5,479 bases of DNA from a virus (IMGVR_UViG_2660238548_000026:1-5479); one strand, 5' to 3'; shown: positions 75 to 5,479, numbered from the stretch's first letter. Made by a program: numbers and translations. Notes: generated from the letters alone by a model not told the origin.

Positions 75-1361
75 TTACCCCGCTTTCTTATGGGGCATAC
101 ATGGGACACTTTCAGATAGTCTTTTGTTAAGGAGTTCTATCTGTTCGTGATTGTTGTCTTTCATCCATGCTCCGTAAACATTGAATACCATTTGTGCGTT
201 TGTGTGGCCCATCTGGCTTGCGATAAAACTAGGATTAGCTCCTGCGGCAAGTGACCAGCATGCATAAGTATGCCTGGATTGGTACGATTTTCTGTGTCTC
301 AGACCTGCGCGTTTTAAGATACTTGTCCATGACTCCCTGATGGAGTCAACCTTGTAGTGAGGTCCGGACAACTGCTGCTGTTTTGTTACCTGAGGACTAA
401 AAACAAAAGTGCATTTATGCACAGCAGTTCTCCCATATTCCCTCTGCTTCACCTCTACAGAATGTTGCTTTCCAAGCATGGTCATTTCCGCCTGGCTTTT
501 AAGAGCATCAATAGCTGGTTGAACCAGATGAATTGTCCTTCCGGTGCCTGCATCGGTTTTTGGTGGAGTGAATTCGCCAAGTTTTGTATAATTTCTACGG
601 ATGGTTATAGTCCTTGCTTTAAGGTCTATATCTTCCCATGCCAGCGATACCAACTCCCCGTGACGAATACCCGTGTATACAGCGAGAATCCACAGGTTTT
701 TTGTTTGTTGATGACGGCAAGCCTCAATAAAACGAATAAATTCGTCACGGGTGAGAGGATCTGGTTTTACCTTGGACTTTTTTAAGGGAGCCAGACCGTT
801 AAATGGGTTTCCTGAGGTATAACCATTATCTGTTGCAAATTGAAACATTCCAGCTATGGTTGTCATATAGTAGTTTACCGTGACCACTGAGCGCCCTTTT
901 ATGGAAGAAGTCTTTCCATTAGAAAGCTTTTGGTAACCGGTCAACAAATCTCTCCTTACGAAAAGTAAATCCTCTTTTGTTATGGATGAAACCAGTTTTT
1001 TTTCACCTAACATTGGTAACATGTTTTTAATTACTGACTGGTAACGGTTAAGTGCATTCGCACAAATCTCAATTTTCTTAAGGTCCAACCATTTTTCCGA
1101 AAGTGCCTTAACGGTTATCTCTCTTTTTCCCAGACCAAAGTGTTTCAGGTTAGGGGAATTAGGGAACTGCGCGGCGTAGTCGAAACTCCCCATTCTGATT
1201 GCAAAACAAACGGAAGTGCGAAGTTCACCAGCGATCTTCCGGTTTTTGGCTGTGTCAGGAACACCGAGGTTTTCTCTGACACGTTTGCCATTATAGTGAA
1301 ACCATATACGGAGTGATCCTCCATGGTTTTCAACGCCTGTCGGGTATGATGCGTTACTCAT
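75..1361 (-). CDS. int: Tyrosine-type site-specific integrase, 428 aa, Rac/IntR-like with an N-terminal arm-binding domain of the DUF3596 type
   Basis: Full-length ORF. C-terminal catalytic motifs are visible: 'TGIRHGE' (box I Arg), 'HRKSYQSRHTYACWSLAAGANPSFIASQMGHTNAQMVFNVYGAWM' (His/Arg/His and the terminal Tyr). N-terminus 'PTGVE...RIWFHYNGKRVRE' resembles Rac-type integrases as I recall them. SD 'GGGAGG' lies about 6 nt upstream of the ATG at 1361. Confidence 0.9.
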   Translation of the reverse strand: MSNASYPTGVENHGGSLRIWFHYNGKRVRENLGVPDTAKNRKIAGELRTSVCFAIRMGSFDYAAQFPNSPNLKHFGLGKREITVKALSEKWLDLKKIEICANALNRYQSVIKNMLPMLGEKKLVSSITKEDLLFVRRDLLTGYQKLSNGKTSSIKGRSVVTVNYYMTTIAGMFQFATDNGYTSGNPFNGLAPLKKSKVKPDPLTRDEFIRFIEACRHQQTKNLWILAVYTGIRHGELVSLAWEDIDLKARTITIRRNYTKLGEFTPPKTDAGTGRTIHLVQPAIDALKSQAEMTMLGKQHSVEVKQREYGRTAVHKCTFVFSPQVTKQQQLSGPHYKVDSIRESWTSILKRAGLRHRKSYQSRHTYACWSLAAGANPSFIASQMGHTNAQMVFNVYGAWMKDNNHEQIELLNKRLSESVPCMPHKKAG

Positions 1362-1394: not shown

Positions 1395-1649
1395 TTAACC
1401 GGAACTTGCATTTTTGGCACCTGGTTGTTTCTGGTTTTCGATCCATCGCATAATTTCTTCGATGTTGTACAGGCATTCACTGTAATGCCCAGGATCACCT
1501 TCTACAGCGTAATGGCGGTATTCTTTTCCCTGCATCCATGACTTTCTTCTGGCCCGCTCGATGGTGCCGGGCTTTAGCCCTGTTGATGCAATAAGGACTC
1601 TCTCCGTACACCATTTGCTGGGGGTTATCTGATAGATGATTGTCTGCAT
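1395..1649 (-). CDS. xis: Excisionase-like / recombination directionality factor (84 aa)
   Basis: Small basic ORF immediately upstream of int and co-oriented with it (33-nt gap). SD 'GAGG' about 6 nt before the ATG. The assignment rests mainly on position and size; the sequence similarity to excisionase-like proteins is my recollection only. Confidence 0.55.
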   Translation of the reverse strand: MQTIIYQITPSKWCTERVLIASTGLKPGTIERARRKSWMQGKEYRHYAVEGDPGHYSECLYNIEEIMRWIENQKQPGAKNASSG

Positions 1650-1667: not shown

Positions 1668-1802
1668 TCATCCACGGCAGTGGAACCACACGTCAAACAT
1701 TCGTTTCACAACTTCACGGCAGTAGAAGCCGTCGACATCACGGGTCAGGTCGTAGCGATTGCCGAATGTCTTGCGAACCCAGAACTCAAAAGCCGTATGC
1801 AT
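1668..1802 (-). CDS. Hypothetical small protein, 44 aa (MHTAFEFWVRKTFGNRYDLTRDVDGFYCREVVKRMFDVWFHCRG)
   Basis: Not in the supplied ORF track (below its size cutoff). Near-consensus SD 'GGAGGTGA' ends 6 nt before the ATG at 1802, and the SD overlaps the TGA stop of the upstream 80-aa gene. The ORF fills the gap between that gene and xis; its stop is 18 nt before the xis ATG. Confidence 0.45.
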   Translation of the reverse strand: MHTAFEFWVRKTFGNRYDLTRDVDGFYCREVVKRMFDVWFHCRG

Positions 1803-1805
1803 GTA

Positions 1806-2048
1806 TCACCTCCGTTGCATTGCGCGTAATTTTTTCAGGCGCATTTCCTGCTCAGTGCCCGCCAGAATTTTGCGGTACTCCTGTTGGTCAATATGTTCGA
1901 ACAGGTTGTTGAACTCACCAATGCGTACCCGTCCGGAGCGCCCGTCCATGCGTCGAAAGAACACTGAGTGCTGAGTACTGCGAGTAATCACCACAGGGTA
2001 TCCGGCTCTGTCCGTGTATATCTGACCACGTTGAATCAGAGCGAACAT
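1806..2048 (-). CDS. Hypothetical phage protein, 80 aa (possibly DUF4222-like)
   Basis: ORF in operon context. Its ATG sits 4 nt after the TAA stop of the upstream 28-aa peptide ORF ('TAAAGGAATG'). The family assignment is a weak recollection. Confidence 0.5.
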   Translation of the reverse strand: MFALIQRGQIYTDRAGYPVVITRSTQHSVFFRRMDGRSGRVRIGEFNNLFEHIDQQEYRKILAGTEQEMRLKKLRAMQRR

Positions 2049-2052
2049 TCCT

Positions 2053-2139
2053 TTATCCCCAGCGGAAAAGCGAATACAGAATAAATGCCACCGCTATTGC
2101 AACTCCAACTGCGGTGAATGCTTCAGGCCAATTCATCAT
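2053..2139 (-). CDS. Small hydrophobic single-helix peptide, 28 aa (MMNWPEAFTAVGVAIAVAFILYSLFRWG)
   Basis: Not in the ORF track. Strong SD 'AGGAGG' 4 nt upstream of the ATG. The start overlaps the stop of the DUF550/DUF551 gene (ATGA), and the stop is 4 nt upstream of the next gene's ATG. Composition matches a single transmembrane helix with aromatic/basic flanks. Confidence 0.4.
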   Translation of the reverse strand: MMNWPEAFTAVGVAIAVAFILYSLFRWG

Positions 2140-2801
2140 TTCACCTCCTGCGGCGGTTCTGGTAGCTGCATCCAGTGGGTTACCTCTTTGAGATACAGGT
2201 CTTCGCCATCACCGTCATCCCAAGTGGGCTTGCCATCATTAAACCAGTCGCCATATACGCCGACCTGAGTGTTGGGGATGTTTGGTGGGTAGTTGTTTTT
2301 AAAGTCAGCTGCTAACACATAGCATTGTCGCTCTCCCATTTCAGGCATTCGCTCACTACAGCTTATCCAACCATCCGGAGTTACCGGAGAGTTGCCGGGT
2401 TCTTTAATGTGCAAACGAGGCTCACCATCTTTTGGTTCAGGCCACTGGCGCTCCATGTTGATCTTCAATTTATTTTCCATAGCAGCGGTAATTTCAGCAT
2501 CACTGATACCAGCACGGCGCTGTGCATCCCACAACAGGAACTGCATATCAGCCCACTCGCTGAGATCGTCAGGTTCGGCTGCGGCTTCCAGTGCCTCTTT
2601 TGAGAGATGTTTCAGCGGACCAATGGGGCCAACGCAGCCAAATGTGGAGTCAGACCATTTGGCATGCTCGTGGCGAATCAGTTCGCGTTCCAGTGATGCC
2701 AGTGCAATTCGTGCCAGTTCCATTTGTTCGCCACGAGTAAGCCCGTTTTCAAGCGGATTTTTAATGAACAATTCAATACGTTCTTTGGTAATAGTGGTCA
2801 T
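2136..2801 (-). CDS. DUF550 (dATP/dGTP pyrophosphohydrolase-type N-terminal domain) fused to DUF551, 221 aa
   Basis: N-terminal region '...EWADMQFLLWDAQRRAGISDAEITAAMENKLKINMERQWPEP...' and C-terminal '...GDWFNDGKPTWDDG...VTHWMQLPEPP' match my memory of DUF550 and DUF551 proteins common in enterobacterial prophages. SD 'AAGGA' about 8 nt upstream; 10-nt gap to the upstream gene's stop. Confidence 0.7.
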   Translation of the reverse strand: MTTITKERIELFIKNPLENGLTRGEQMELARIALASLERELIRHEHAKWSDSTFGCVGPIGPLKHLSKEALEAAAEPDDLSEWADMQFLLWDAQRRAGISDAEITAAMENKLKINMERQWPEPKDGEPRLHIKEPGNSPVTPDGWISCSERMPEMGERQCYVLAADFKNNYPPNIPNTQVGVYGDWFNDGKPTWDDGDGEDLYLKEVTHWMQLPEPPQEVK

Positions 2802-2811
2802 TTGTTAGTCC

Positions 2812-3567
2812 TTAAAGTGCTAGTTGCAATTGCATTTCAAAGCGGTCGCGTTGTTCACAATACGCAAGAGAACCAGGGCTATTGTGTGCCTCAATCCGTT
2901 CTACCATTAATGCTGCGCGTGTCTCTTTACTTGCAGGTGCATAAGCCCCAGACCAGGCTTTATCAATACCGATGTTTCGAGCGACGTTCGTACTATCTGC
3001 GCTGGCTAAGGGTAATTTTGTGAATATCAGCGGATTTAACATGCGCAATCCATGTAGTTTCGTAACCGGCTGACCATGCCCATCAACAATGTGACGAATC
3101 AGGTCTTTCATTCTGGCTACCGCAAGAGTTGGGCGCTTTACGTCATAGTCGCCACAACTACCGATAGCCACTCGCGGAAACTCATTGCACAAATGAATAA
3201 ATCGCTCGTCACTTTCATTCATGTGCCACACTGGAACGCCAGCTAGTTTTCCGTGAGGCCACTCATTCAGAAGCGCATCATTTTCCTCCTCTCCGCCATC
3301 AATAACATCCGGGATAATGGCAAAATCGAATCCTGGGTGATTCTTCCAGCGAGCAACAAACTCGTAGTAATCGCTCCAGTCGATTTTGTTTTTGCCAGCT
3401 GCTTTCCAGGCGGTGAATGCACCGTTGTCCAGCGCGAACGACTGACAGTATTCAGCCGCGAGATTGATCTGGCCTGAATGCGCAAAACTGATAAACGCAT
3501 GTCGCCCTTTCCATGCTCTCATTGCGCACGTATCAGGAGTAATAGGCCCACCGTGGTAGTGAATCAT
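2812..3567 (-). CDS. TGT-like protein (queuine/archaeosine tRNA-ribosyltransferase-like motifs), candidate DpdA-like 7-deazaguanine DNA transglycosylase, about 251 aa
   Basis: The ORF track extends to 3609, but the ATG at 3567 (MIHYHGGP...) has SD 'AAGGAG' upstream and lies 1 nt after the Ea22-like stop, whereas the ATG at 3609 has no SD and would overlap that gene by 41 nt. Motifs in TGT order: 'LDNGAF' (res 46-51, cf. TGT 'TDSGGFQ'), 'AIIPDVID' (cf. 'IFDEC'), 'VAIGSCGDYD', 'ADSTNVARNIG' (res 190-200, cf. E. coli Tgt 'FDCVMPTRNARNG'). No C-terminal CxCxxC...H zinc subdomain. Confidence is for the CDS; the functional call is about 0.5. Confidence 0.7.
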   Translation of the reverse strand: MIHYHGGPITPDTCAMRAWKGRHAFISFAHSGQINLAAEYCQSFALDNGAFTAWKAAGKNKIDWSDYYEFVARWKNHPGFDFAIIPDVIDGGEEENDALLNEWPHGKLAGVPVWHMNESDERFIHLCNEFPRVAIGSCGDYDVKRPTLAVARMKDLIRHIVDGHGQPVTKLHGLRMLNPLIFTKLPLASADSTNVARNIGIDKAWSGAYAPASKETRAALMVERIEAHNSPGSLAYCEQRDRFEMQLQLAL

Positions 3568-3568
3568 C

Positions 3569-3976
3569 TCACTCTCCTTTGATGCGAATGCCAGTAGCGC
3601 GGATTGCATCGATGACTTCAGAAACTTTGTATGCCATTACCGTTTGGTAATCATCGTGAAAATCTGTTCGATGAAGCATGCTGCTACGTTCCGGGAGCAG
3701 TATTTCCCGCGCTTCCAGTTCTGCAATGCGCTTTTTTGCTGCTTCCAGTTCATCCAGTAATTCCAGCACGGTAGCCGGATTAGCCTTGGCAACAAAATCC
3801 CGGACTGGCTTACAATCAATCTCCGCAATGGGTTGATACGATGTGTAGCCATGCTGTCTTGTATAACTACCGTGACGAATAACGAAAAAATCACCATTTA
3901 TTTTTTTAGCCTGCCACTTATCTTCACCGGCTTTCTCTGCCGCTTCACGCAGTGCCTGAGAGTTAATTTCGCTCAC
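3569..3976 (-). CDS. Ead/Ea22-like family protein, 135 aa
   Basis: N-terminus 'MSEINSQALREAAEKA...' and coiled-coil 'LELLDELEAAKKRIAELEA' resemble lambdoid Ead/Ea22-like proteins as I recall them. The start is GTG at 3976 (shown as M in the track), overlapping the TraR-like stop (GTGA), with SD 'GAGAGG' about 8 nt upstream. Confidence 0.65.
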   Translation of the reverse strand: MSEINSQALREAAEKAGEDKWQAKKINGDFFVIRHGSYTRQHGYTSYQPIAEIDCKPVRDFVAKANPATVLELLDELEAAKKRIAELEAREILLPERSSMLHRTDFHDDYQTVMAYKVSEVIDAIRATGIRIKGE

Positions 3977-4194
3977 TTCGAACCTCTCTGTTTACTGATA
4001 AGCTCCAGATCCTCCTGGCAACTTGCACAAGTCCGACAACCCTGAACGACCAGGCGTCTTCGTTCATCTATGGGATCGCCACACTCACAACAATGAGTGG
4101 CGGATATAGTCTGGTAGTTCAGACGACGCATTTTTATTGCTGTATTGCGCTGTAATTCTTCAATTTCTGATGCTGAATCAATGATGTCCGCCAT
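3973..4194 (-). CDS. TraR/DksA-family C4-type zinc-finger protein, 73 aa
   Basis: Four-Cys motif '...THCCECGDPIDERRRLVVQGCRTCASCQE...' matches the phage TraR/DksA C4 zinc-finger pattern (Cx2C...Cx2C with 'G.PI...RR'). ATG at 4194 with 'AGGGA' upstream; first gene after the 4195-4292 intergenic gap. Confidence 0.75.
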   Translation of the reverse strand: MADIIDSASEIEELQRNTAIKMRRLNYQTISATHCCECGDPIDERRRLVVQGCRTCASCQEDLELISKQRGSK

Positions 4195-4292: not shown

Positions 4293-4574
4293 TCACCGTT
4301 CCTTAAAAACGCCGTTTAACATGCCGATTGCCAGGCTTAAATGAGTCGGTGTGAATCCCATCAGCGTTACCGTTTCGCGGTGCTTCTTCAGTACGCTACG
4401 GCAAATGTCATCGACGTTTTTATCCGGAAACTGCTGTCTGGCTTTTTTGATTTCAGAATTAGCCTGACGGGCAATGCTGCGAAGGGCGTTTTCCTGCTGA
4501 GGTGTCACTGAACAAGCCCCATGTCGGCAAGCATAAGCACACAGAATATGAAGCCCGCTGCCAGAAAAATGCAT
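4293..4574 (-). CDS. Hypothetical phage protein occupying the slot of lambda orf61; start uncertain (93 aa from ATG 4574, or 71 aa from GTG 4508)
   Basis: The C-terminal ~70 residues look protein-like ('...IARQANSEIKKARQQFPDKNVDDICRSVLKKHRETVTLMGFTPTHLSLAIGMLNGVFKER'). The ATG at 4574 has no SD, and the first 22 residues are Cys/His/Gly-rich and overlap a more plausible alternative-frame peptide ORF. GTG at 4508 would overlap that peptide's TGA stop (GTGA), the same junction type as at 3973-3976. Confidence 0.5.
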   Translation of the reverse strand: MHFSGSGLHILCAYACRHGACSVTPQQENALRSIARQANSEIKKARQQFPDKNVDDICRSVLKKHRETVTLMGFTPTHLSLAIGMLNGVFKER

Positions 4575-4588
4575 TCAGTGGTTGTCAT
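4505..4588 (-). CDS. Candidate small hydrophobic peptide, 27 aa (MTTTECIFLAAGFIFCVLMLADMGLVQ)
   Basis: Not in the ORF track. ATG overlaps the TGA stop of orf63 (ATGA at 4585-4588); its stop overlaps the in-frame GTG at 4508 of the downstream gene. The peptide is helix-like and hydrophobic. The SD is weak ('AGG' 2 nt upstream), so expression would depend on translational coupling. Confidence 0.3.
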   Translation of the reverse strand: MTTTECIFLAAGFIFCVLMLADMGLVQ

Positions 4589-4776
4589 ACCTGGTCTCTT
4601 TCATCTGCTTCTGCTTTCGCCACCATCATTTCCAGCTTTTGTGAAAGGGATGTGGCTAACGTATGAAATTCTTCGTCTGTTTCTACTGGTATTGGCACAA
4701 ACCTGACTCCAATTTGAGCAAGGCTATGTGCCATCTCAATACTCGTTCTTAACTCAACAGGAGATGCTTTGTGCAT
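4585..4776 (-). CDS. orf63: Homolog of phage lambda orf63 (63 aa, function unknown)
   Basis: 63-aa ORF overlapping the downstream orf60a by 28 nt, the same length and overlap geometry I recall for lambda orf63/orf60a. The sequence appears near-identical to lambda orf63 as I remember it. Confidence 0.75.
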   Translation of the reverse strand: MHKASPVELRTSIEMAHSLAQIGVRFVPIPVETDEEFHTLATSLSQKLEMMVAKAEADERDQV

Positions 4777-4931
4777 ACCGCCTCCCGTTTATTATTTATC
4801 TTCTCAGCCAGCCGCTGTGCTTTCAGTGGATTTCTGATAACAGAAAGGCCGGGAAATACCCAGCCTCGCTTTGTAACGGAGTAGACGAAAGTGATCGCGC
4901 CTACCCGGATATTATCGTGAGGATGCGTCAT
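4749..4931 (-). CDS. orf60a: Homolog of phage lambda orf60a (60 aa from the second ATG; 62 aa from the ATG at 4937)
   Basis: The ORF track starts at 4937 (MAMTHP...). The second ATG at 4931 overlaps the exo TGA stop (ATGA) and gives 60 aa, matching the lambda orf60a arrangement as I recall it. Confidence 0.75.
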
Positions 4932-5479
4932 CGCCATTGCTCCCCAAATACAAAACCAATTTCAGCCAGTGCCTCGTCCATTTTTTCGATGAACTCCGGC
5001 ACCATCTCGTCAAAACTCGCCATGTACTTTTCATTCCGCTCAATCACGACATAATGCAGTCCTTCACGCTTCATACGCGGGTCATAGTTGGCAAAGTACC
5101 AGGCATCTTTTCGTGTCACCCACATGCTGTACTGCACCTGGGCCATGTAAGCCGATTTTATGGCCTCGAAACCACCGAGCCGGAATTTCATGAAATCCCG
5201 GGAGGTAAACGGGCATTTCAGTTCAAGGCCGTTGCCGTCACTGCATAAACCATCCGGAGAGCAGGCGGTGCGCATACTTTCGTCGCGATAGATGATCGGG
5301 GATTCAGTAACATTCACGCCGGAAGTAAACTCAAACAGGGCTCTGGCGTCGTTTTCGTACTGTTTTCCCCAGGCCAGCGCTTTAGCGTTAACTTCCGGAG
5401 CCACACCGGTGCAAACCTCAGCAAGCAGGGTGTGGAAGTAGGACATTTTCATGTCAGGCCACTTTTTTCCGGAGCGGGG
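4928..5479 (-). CDS. exo: Lambda-type exonuclease (Red-alpha / Exo), 3' portion; N-terminus lies beyond the right edge of the window
   Basis: The translated 174 aa ('[35 protein letters not shown]...[19 protein letters not shown]') corresponds to the C-terminal ~175 residues of lambda Exo (226 aa) as I recall it. The reading frame stays open to the window edge, so the M at 5452 is an internal Met, not the start. Confidence 0.9.

Follow-up and report, generated by a model that had tools for sequence, protein, structure and literature searches.

The stretch of viral DNA studied here (IMGVR_UViG_2660238548_000026:1-5479; 5,479 nucleotides (nt), which we call the window) has all its genes on the minus strand; judging by their Pfam and PHROGs matches, these genes make up the early left arm of a lambdoid prophage. 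A small open reading frame (ORF), the subject of this work, lies in it between an EaA-like gene and a gene for a DUF4222 protein. The ORF sits in the leftward early operon of a lambdoid prophage of the Shiga toxin 1 (Stx1) type, within the exo-xis region and by mlrA (yehV), which the integrase gene adjoins in the closest complete genomes. An original prediction, made from the sequence of the window alone, had singled out this ORF as an unannotated gene for a hydrophobic peptide of 28 amino acids (aa), deliberately coupled to its neighbours. Read on the minus strand, the region is ...CAGGAGGTGAAATGATGAATTGG...CGCTGGGGATAAAGGAATGTTC, and an alternative extract of its upstream junction is ...CAGGAGGTGAAATGATGAATTGGCCT...CGCTGGGGATAAAGGAATGTTC.... 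A Shine-Dalgarno sequence, AGGAGG (2149-2144), stands before the first ATG (2139-2137), from which it is separated by TGAA, a spacer of 4 nt; this ATG and the TGA that ends the upstream gene (2138-2136) overlap as ATGA. A second in-frame ATG (2136-2134) lies 7 nt from the Shine-Dalgarno sequence, and its overlap with the same stop reads TGATG. At the other end, the TAA of the small ORF (2055-2053) is followed by the four nucleotides AGGA and then by the ATG of the DUF4222 gene at 2048. All the details that the prediction had given for the two junctions, namely the AGGAGG, the 4-nt spacer, the ATGA overlap with the upstream stop and the TAA placed 4 nt before the next ATG, are correct on this strand.

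The length of the product has to be revised. The ORF of the window does translate into 28 aa, but the start codon kept in relatives is the second ATG. Relatives have this second ATG only, four loci having GTG as the first codon and the upstream stop overlapping the conserved ATG, which implies that the conserved product has 27 aa; this is also the likely product in the window. The clade of the window has acquired an extra ATG 4 nt from the Shine-Dalgarno sequence, which would give a product of 28 aa if used. Unless stated otherwise, residues are numbered below on the 27-aa form.

Features of a single sequence could be explained by chance. The window contains AGGAGG three times where 1.85 would be expected, and 53 of 200 shuffles reached this count; an open frame of 84 nt is likewise common. 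It is the relatives that settle the status of the gene. Searches of phage records with tblastn returned identical copies as well as diverged ones (48-70% identity) in 933W, VT2-Sakai, ArgO145, Av-05 and others, and the DNA of each of these relatives has an ATG overlapping the upstream stop, 27 codons and a stop. Together with further loci from scans of IMG/VR, of species-representative genomes and of plasmids, this gave 47 distinct alleles of 84 nt encoding 20 peptides, all of exactly 27 codons. One of these peptides, MTWPEAFTTVGIAMAVALVVYSICRWG, is encoded by about 18 alleles that differ synonymously only. The mean pairwise ratio of non-synonymous to synonymous divergence (dN/dS) is 0.24 in the frame of the ORF; of the five other frames, four have values of 1.1-3.0. 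A minimum spanning tree of the alleles has 80.5 synonymous against 56.5 non-synonymous changes, a synonymous share of 59% where 25.5% would be expected (p=3.6e-16, binomial test).

Loci found through the peptide favour intact copies. Hence, we also fetched 80 loci through the neighbouring DUF4222 protein: an intact ORF lies directly upstream in 79 of them, and the remaining one has an extra G in a run of G. Among the DNA-level matches in E. coli genomes, the only length variant is an in-frame duplication of 6 nt (29 aa). A degenerate DNA pattern fixing only M1, W3, P4, A6, G11, A15, R25 and W26, and leaving the stop free, matched members of the family only; all of them stop after codon 27, they add about 15 peptide variants, and they include a new clade, MNWPEAFAITGVAMAIAFLVYVICRWG. 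The original prediction expected a real gene to be conserved with synonymous-site variation across related prophages, which is what these alleles display, and it would have been weakened by relatives in which the ORF is disrupted while the flanking genes are kept, which is not what we found at 79 of the 80 loci chosen through DUF4222. Taken across relatives, this variation shows that the small ORF evolves as a genuine gene under purifying selection, and we consider it very probable that the gene is translated.

The same comparisons support the coupling of the ORF to the gene before it. Each of the 83 distinct sequence contexts has a Shine-Dalgarno-like core 5-10 nt ahead of the conserved ATG (AGGAGG at 7 nt in 54 contexts, GGAGG at 10 nt in 14). 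In 77 of the 83, a long upstream ORF ends in a stop that overlaps this start, as ATGA or TGATG. The upstream proteins are mosaic proteins of the Ea type with at least five unrelated C-terminal modules, which end in ..LPEPPQEVNQ (DUF551), ..NGLISVEDILR, ..NIEQEVNR (an Ea22-like coiled coil), ..VIAGIGVEVK and, in Av-05, ..AMLKKKGMNQ. The downstream sequences vary too: they comprise DUF4222 at +4, hok/sok, terminator-like hairpins, toxin-antitoxin genes on the opposite strand and other small ORFs. The junctions left by recombination lie no more than about 15 nt ahead of the ATG on one side and at the stop codon on the other, and the Shine-Dalgarno sequence and the ORF together behave as a module of about 100 nt. 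Since the module has no constant gene neighbour, the peptide probably acts on the host or alone. Selection, intactness and the recurrence of the stop/start overlap and Shine-Dalgarno sequence behind unrelated upstream genes all argue for a coupled gene rather than a chance ORF, as originally proposed.

Two observations concern what follows the module. In 933W (L006 1201-1650) and in many E. coli prophages (L260-L262), a hok/sok-type locus (hokW/sokW, hokD) lies about 150 nt downstream of the small gene, and the junction sequence, TAAAAACGGTTTGCGGGAAAAGG, recurs in many otherwise different phages. In the clade MNWPEAFAITGVAMAIAFLVYVICRWG, a small hydrophobic ORF, MSDDISLAMEGALAVIAVVGVYCLVVFLMDRLGN, with its own Shine-Dalgarno sequence, AAAGGAGGGAATATG, is found 36 nt after the small gene (L268 10391-10600, plus strand; also L271, L284 and L332). 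Small genes for membrane peptides can thus occur in tandem at the end of the array of Ea genes.

Table 1. Features of the window, with the small ORF and its immediate surroundings first and the other genes of the early arm after them.
Feature	Position	Strand	Remarks
Small ORF, 28-codon form and TAA	2053..2139	-	Product MMNWPEAFTAVGVAIAVAFILYSLFRWG; translation of the window
Conserved form, 27 codons and stop, starting at the second ATG (MNWPEAF...RWG)	2053..2136	-	Form present in all relatives
Region coding for the predicted transmembrane helix	2065..2121	-	AFTAVGVAIAVAFILYSLF (residues 7-25 of the 28-aa form), with the invariant A6, G11 and A15; Kyte-Doolittle mean of 2.28 for these 19 residues; net charge -1 at the N-end and +1 at the C-end
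Shine-Dalgarno sequence AGGAGG	2144..2149	-	Inside the last codons (..Q-E-V-K) of the upstream gene; 4 nt to the first ATG, 7 nt to the conserved second ATG
Upstream gene, 221 aa, dATP/dGTP pyrophosphohydrolase and DUF551, EaA-like	2136..2801	-	PF04447 3.8e-42, PF04448 6.4e-20
Downstream gene, 80 aa, DUF4222	1806..2048	-	PF13973 9.3e-16; neighbour in several clades, not all
YqaJ/lambda-type exonuclease	4928-5452	-	
DUF1382 (orf63-like)	4585-4776	-	
93-aa ORF	4293-4574	-	
TraR/DksA zinc finger (orf73-like)	3973-4194	-	
Ea22-like	3569-3976	-	
265-aa protein, DpdA-like	2812-3609	-	PHROG 887 'queuine tRNA-ribosyltransferase' E=5e-104; no Pfam match
44-aa ORF	1668-1802	-	
Excisionase	1395-1649	-	
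Integrase	75-1361	-	

The peptide looks like a membrane helix with little else. Over residues 6-24 the Kyte-Doolittle hydropathy averages 2.1-2.6, far more than the threshold commonly set for membrane helices; the segment contains neither a lipobox nor a charged residue, and no mature domain follows it. With Glu or Asp at position 5, the N-terminal end has a net charge of -1, and with Arg25 the C-terminal end has +1 or +2, a layout for which the positive-inside rule predicts that the N-terminus is out and the C-terminus in. The peptide had been described as essentially one transmembrane helix flanked by Trp and Arg, and the hydrophobic segment of 19 residues between an acidic and a basic end agrees well with this description. 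On the strength of these calculations we find it quite likely that the product is inserted in the membrane as a single helix. Six residues, W3, A6, G11, A15, R25 and W26, are invariant in the sets of sequences that were not selected on these residues, and P4 is replaced by Arg in one minor variant. The spacing G11-x3-A15 is that of the classic small-xxx-small motif of helix packing, which we take as a lead and not as a test.

Near the small ORF we found no site resembling a promoter or a terminator; in the window there was no Rfam match, and the local RNA fold was no better than that of shuffles (z=+0.39). The small ORF is an internal cistron of a long operon. Its position, between the EaA-like gene on one side and DUF4222, xis and int on the other, is not that of the lysis cassette in which a holin or antiholin would be located. 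It shares region and operon with the exo-xis genes orf60a, orf63, orf61, orf73, ea22 and ea8.5, which published work depicts as small accessory early genes influencing the lysis-lysogeny decision (PMC8614690, PMC10789677). These papers place the expression of the exo-xis region at the earliest lytic stages and attribute to it the promotion of lytic growth; published work also links the region to the induction of Shiga toxin prophages. The word 'transmembrane' does not occur in a review devoted to modelling the exo-xis proteins of lambda, Phi24B and 933W, and no membrane protein is among the genes described for the region. The small ORF would be an unrecognised, membrane-embedded member of the exo-xis group.

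The arm holds two further points of interest. The DpdA-like protein of 265 aa (2812-3609) is encoded directly upstream of the pyrophosphohydrolase and DUF551 gene, and these two genes may form a pair for 7-deazaguanine DNA modification (anti-restriction) in the prophage. Further upstream, at 4505-4588 on the minus strand, there is a second hydrophobic ORF of 27 aa, MTTTECIFLAAGFIFCVLMLADMGLVQ. With the TGA of the DUF1382 (orf63-like) gene its ATG forms an ATGA overlap, and its own TGA overlaps the GTG/ATG at 4508 at which the Prokaryotic Genome Annotation Pipeline (PGAP) starts the next gene, so that three genes form a coupling chain. This ORF has copies of at least 92% identity in 175 phage records, among them lambda, HK630 and phage 21, in which it is annotated as 'putative membrane protein' with a ribosome-binding site. 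We found eight DNA alleles of it, with about eight synonymous and two non-synonymous variable sites; so little divergence does not allow a firm test, but this ORF, too, is probably a real gene for a membrane microprotein.

In every annotated record that we inspected, the small ORF under study is an unannotated gap of 84-87 nt between two genes. These records comprised Stx1 phages, BP-4795, YYZ-2008, 933W, ArgO145, Av-05, several RefSeq E. coli chromosomes and IncY plasmids. A look-up of the exact sequence returned a handful of GenBank calls as 'hypothetical protein' or 'bacteriophage protein' (ASL58468.1 with 28 aa, ETI78407.1 and AOM45384.1 with 27 aa, and EIL24003.1). The gene is thus absent from all inspected RefSeq/PGAP and phage records, as had been stated, but it has been called by a few GenBank submitters. 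The peptide matches no family of Pfam or NCBIfam; in PHROGs its best match is a weak one to a family whose function is given as unknown (phrog_35838, E=0.085), and no exclusion-protein or holin family of Pfam, NCBIfam or PHROGs was matched. Clusters at 90% identity that mix the peptide with DUF551 proteins were considered as possible real fusions and rejected; they are partial gene calls at the ends of contigs. Searches of full-text literature with the peptide strings returned nothing relevant, a literature search on small genes of phages was equally fruitless, and the peptide sequence is not in the supplements of the 'cryptic microproteome' preprint (PMC11188072).

DNA similar to the gene is widespread in E. 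coli. A blastn search with the 87 nt alone, requiring at least 80% query coverage, found similar DNA in 1555 of 5426 complete E. coli genomes (about 29%), at 2838 places, with up to seven places per genome and 110 of them on plasmids; these are DNA matches, the intactness of which was checked for some only. The O157:H7 phages VT1-Sakai, VT2-Sakai and 933W carry a copy. Matches on plasmids are mostly in non-mobilizable replicons of about 91-116 kilobases in E. coli, E. fergusonii and Salmonella. Two such plasmids that we inspected are IncY, and in them the ORF follows DUF551/Eaa genes and is unannotated. IncY is the incompatibility group of P1, and these IncY replicons are phage-plasmids. The ORF also occurs in the virulent Vequintavirinae phage Av-05 and in related large phages. 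A pattern scan of bacteria with one genome per species gave Escherichia and Shigella only, besides two very short contigs, attributed to Acinetobacter idrijaensis (L012, 369 nt) and to Xanthomonas pisi (L016, 431 nt). Both have an ORF of the E. coli type with flanks of E. coli phages, and contamination of the assemblies is the most likely origin of these copies.

How might such a peptide work? The explanation that we favour, and to which we give a little better than an even chance, is that of a coupled gene of the early operon whose product is a membrane helix acting as a modulator. The peptide would appear with any translation of the early-left transcript, upon infection or induction and not in the repressed lysogen; its own translation would start by termination-reinitiation or by coupling driven by the Shine-Dalgarno sequence. 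In the inner membrane the product would form a single-pass helix with its N-terminus outside and its C-terminus inside, and Trp3 and Arg25-Trp26 would be placed at the two membrane interfaces. Insertion would be post-translational, because a peptide of 27 aa is shorter than the ribosomal tunnel; YohP, also of 27 aa, is comparable. Once inserted, the helix would work within the plane of the membrane and might bind laterally to a helix of a larger membrane protein, perhaps through G11-x3-A15, and change the activity of that protein towards lytic development or host takeover.

The original prediction had left three roles side by side, those of toxin, exclusion factor and modulator of membrane proteins. 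If the gene is real, a modulator is our tentative choice among them, at somewhat less than an even chance. It is favoured because many characterised bacterial peptides of such size and shape act in this way, because the helix has no polar or charged residues that could line a pore, and because the invariant residues are interface anchors and a small-xxx-small pair. A role in lytic rather than lysogenic growth is mildly favoured by the context, as the gene is also present in the virulent Av-05 and in the IncY phage-plasmids. A more specific proposal, possible but rather doubtful as it stands, is that the 27-aa product is an unrecognised effector of lambdoid and Stx phages, produced in the opening minutes of lytic growth, that binds a specific host inner-membrane protein (a transporter, a protease, a division protein or a membrane-bound defence protein) and thereby measurably shifts lysis timing, burst size, the lysis-lysogeny decision or the yield of Shiga toxin.

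Several observations weigh against the explanation that we favour. Phi24B, the best-studied model of the exo-xis region, is without the ORF at the corresponding junction (in its first 12 kilobases, which hold its exo-xis region); the published phenotypes of Phi24B deletions therefore do not bear on the ORF. At this junction (L382 2640-2925), the DUF551 gene ends in ..PPQEVNRG and is directly followed by a DUF1382-like gene starting with GTG, and the overlapping small coding sequences annotated there (vb_24B_4c, 5c and 6c) look inconsistent. A few copies of the gene are frameshifted, which means that it is dispensable in some prophages; such occasional loss is as expected in decaying prophages. 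One of the frameshifted copies, in E. coli strain 4/4, has a deletion of 1 nt in codon 2 (L261 1496-1580) and another, in one IMG/VR contig (among L180-L259), has the extra G in a run of G; both result either from the decay of a prophage or from sequencing errors in homopolymers. The antisense frame whose wobble positions are aligned with those of the ORF shows the same synonymous excess as the ORF itself, a signal that is a known geometric artefact of coinciding wobble positions. As for the peptide, S22 was invariant in the first sets and is Val in one clade, and conservation is not clustered on one face of the helix (variability moment 0.06, permutation p=0.91), so that the proposed 'binding face' rests on the invariant G11 and A15 only. 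Finally, in the portion examined of the ribosome-profiling table of the O157 strain Sakai there is no ORF shorter than 93 base pairs, and the peptide sequence is not in the supplements of the corresponding paper.

Other explanations have to be weighed against a modulator. The size and extreme hydrophobicity of the peptide would also fit a small toxic peptide, which might depolarise or permeabilise the inner membrane as do type I toxins (Ibs, ShoB, TisB, DinQ, Hok) or block division in the manner of kil. Type I toxins (Hok/Gef, TisB, IbsC, ShoB, DinQ) are likewise small hydrophobic peptides of the inner membrane, the early-left operon of lambdoids encodes killing functions such as kil, which is annotated there in Phi24B, and a hok/sok module adjoins the gene in many phages, 933W included. 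Yet, this hok/sok is a separate module absent from most contexts, and the traits that define type I systems beyond the small hydrophobic peptide itself, a cognate antitoxin RNA and a repressed transcript of its own, were not found: weak tests, all negative, turned up neither a promoter-like site near the ORF on the opposite strand nor an Rfam match nor a special RNA structure. Moreover, translation is coupled to an ordinary operon gene and has a strong Shine-Dalgarno sequence instead of being tightly repressed, up to seven copies are tolerated per genome, the helix has no charged or strongly polar residue with which to line a pore, and the gene is present in a virulent phage, where addiction has no role. 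We consider a peptide that kills the host or damages its membrane improbable, and the narrower role of type I toxin or prophage addiction unlikely. Less probable still is a factor of superinfection exclusion or immunity that would block the entry of incoming phage DNA, as do T4 Imm, HK97 gp15 and P22 SieA. These proteins, like lambda SieB and RexB, are accessory membrane proteins of early or immunity regions; a membrane peptide in the accessory early region of temperate phages resembles them, and each lambdoid prophage tends to have its own copy. However, known exclusion proteins are larger, often with more than one helix, and are expressed from the prophage in temperate phages, whereas this gene is coupled into an operon of the PL type and has no promoter-like site for expression from the repressed prophage; we found no homology between them and the small ORF, nor any match to exclusion-protein families in Pfam, PHROGs and NCBIfam.

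The act of translation might also matter instead of the peptide, if the ORF served as a coupling spacer relaying ribosomes from one gene to the next or as a conserved linker favouring recombination among mosaic phages. A relay would have just such a stop/start overlap upstream and just such a gap of 4 nt to DUF4222, the mosaic junctions fall exactly at both ends of the unit, and the codons of R-W-G (CGCTGGGGA) could serve as the Shine-Dalgarno sequence of DUF4222. But selection acts on the amino acids, as the low dN/dS and the single 27-aa peptide made from about 18 DNA alleles indicate, and the length is fixed at 27 codons. Most contexts have no coupled gene downstream (they have hok/sok, hairpins or genes on the opposite strand) and yet R-W-G and the rest of the peptide are conserved in them; R-W-G is therefore not explained solely as a Shine-Dalgarno sequence for DUF4222. 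We regard such a role of translation alone as very improbable. There is even less to recommend the idea that the conserved element is something else altogether, i.e. a gene in the antisense frame (the plus strand of the window), a structured RNA, or a C-terminal membrane tail that the upstream protein would gain through a -1 frameshift, and we give it hardly any credence. The wobble-aligned antisense frame, which shares the synonymous excess, is open in 103 of 105 contexts, but we rejected it as a candidate gene since its start is not conserved. Where this frame has a start codon at all, the first one falls anywhere between -39 and +74 codons relative to the region, and all that the frame holds in the window is a GTG-started ORF of 25 aa, which covers eight codons of the region. 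A structured RNA is at odds with the lack of an Rfam match and with the fold z-score. The small ORF does lie in the -1 frame of the upstream gene, and this frame is open for more than 13 codons upstream; against a frameshifted tail, no slippery site of the form X-XXY-YYZ is common to five upstream ends, and an ATG with its Shine-Dalgarno sequence is always present.

The modulator that we favour resembles a known class of bacterial proteins. The single-helix regulatory microproteins AcrZ, MgtS, KdpF, CydX, PmrR and YohP have at most 50 aa, one helix and aromatic or basic residues at the interfaces, are often unannotated, and bind a larger membrane protein. The peptide described here, with one predicted transmembrane helix at residues 6-24 of 27, is within this size and is like them in hydropathy and charge layout. 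It is not homologous to them, and it differs in that its gene is phage-borne, coupled in an early phage operon and mobile between unrelated neighbours. In Enterobacteriaceae, tens of thousands of clusters of intergenic small ORFs under purifying selection have been reported, mostly hydrophobic or possibly transmembrane (PMC11188072). That description fits our gene, with the difference that this family is tied to phages and to stop/start coupling. Thus, the kind of gene is already known; as far as we found, this family and its behaviour as a phage module are undescribed.

Small membrane proteins are systematically missed by annotation, and RefSeq/PGAP has missed this one in every record that we inspected, although similar DNA is present in about 29% of complete E. 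coli genomes, the Stx1 and Stx2 phages of O157:H7 included. Anyone who deletes or clones the exo-xis region of a phage with the ORF would include the ORF unawares. As a candidate the gene is compact (84 nt), its start and stop are clear, and allelic variants of it exist in nature. Real genes may hide elsewhere in gaps of 84-87 nt between phage genes of the same strand that show a stop/start overlap and a Shine-Dalgarno sequence, a rule that annotation pipelines could use and for which the ORF at 4505-4588 is a second candidate. If the peptide is indeed an effector of early lytic growth, its gene would be among the most widespread uncharacterised phage genes in E. coli and a hidden contributor to the phenotypes ascribed to the exo-xis region.

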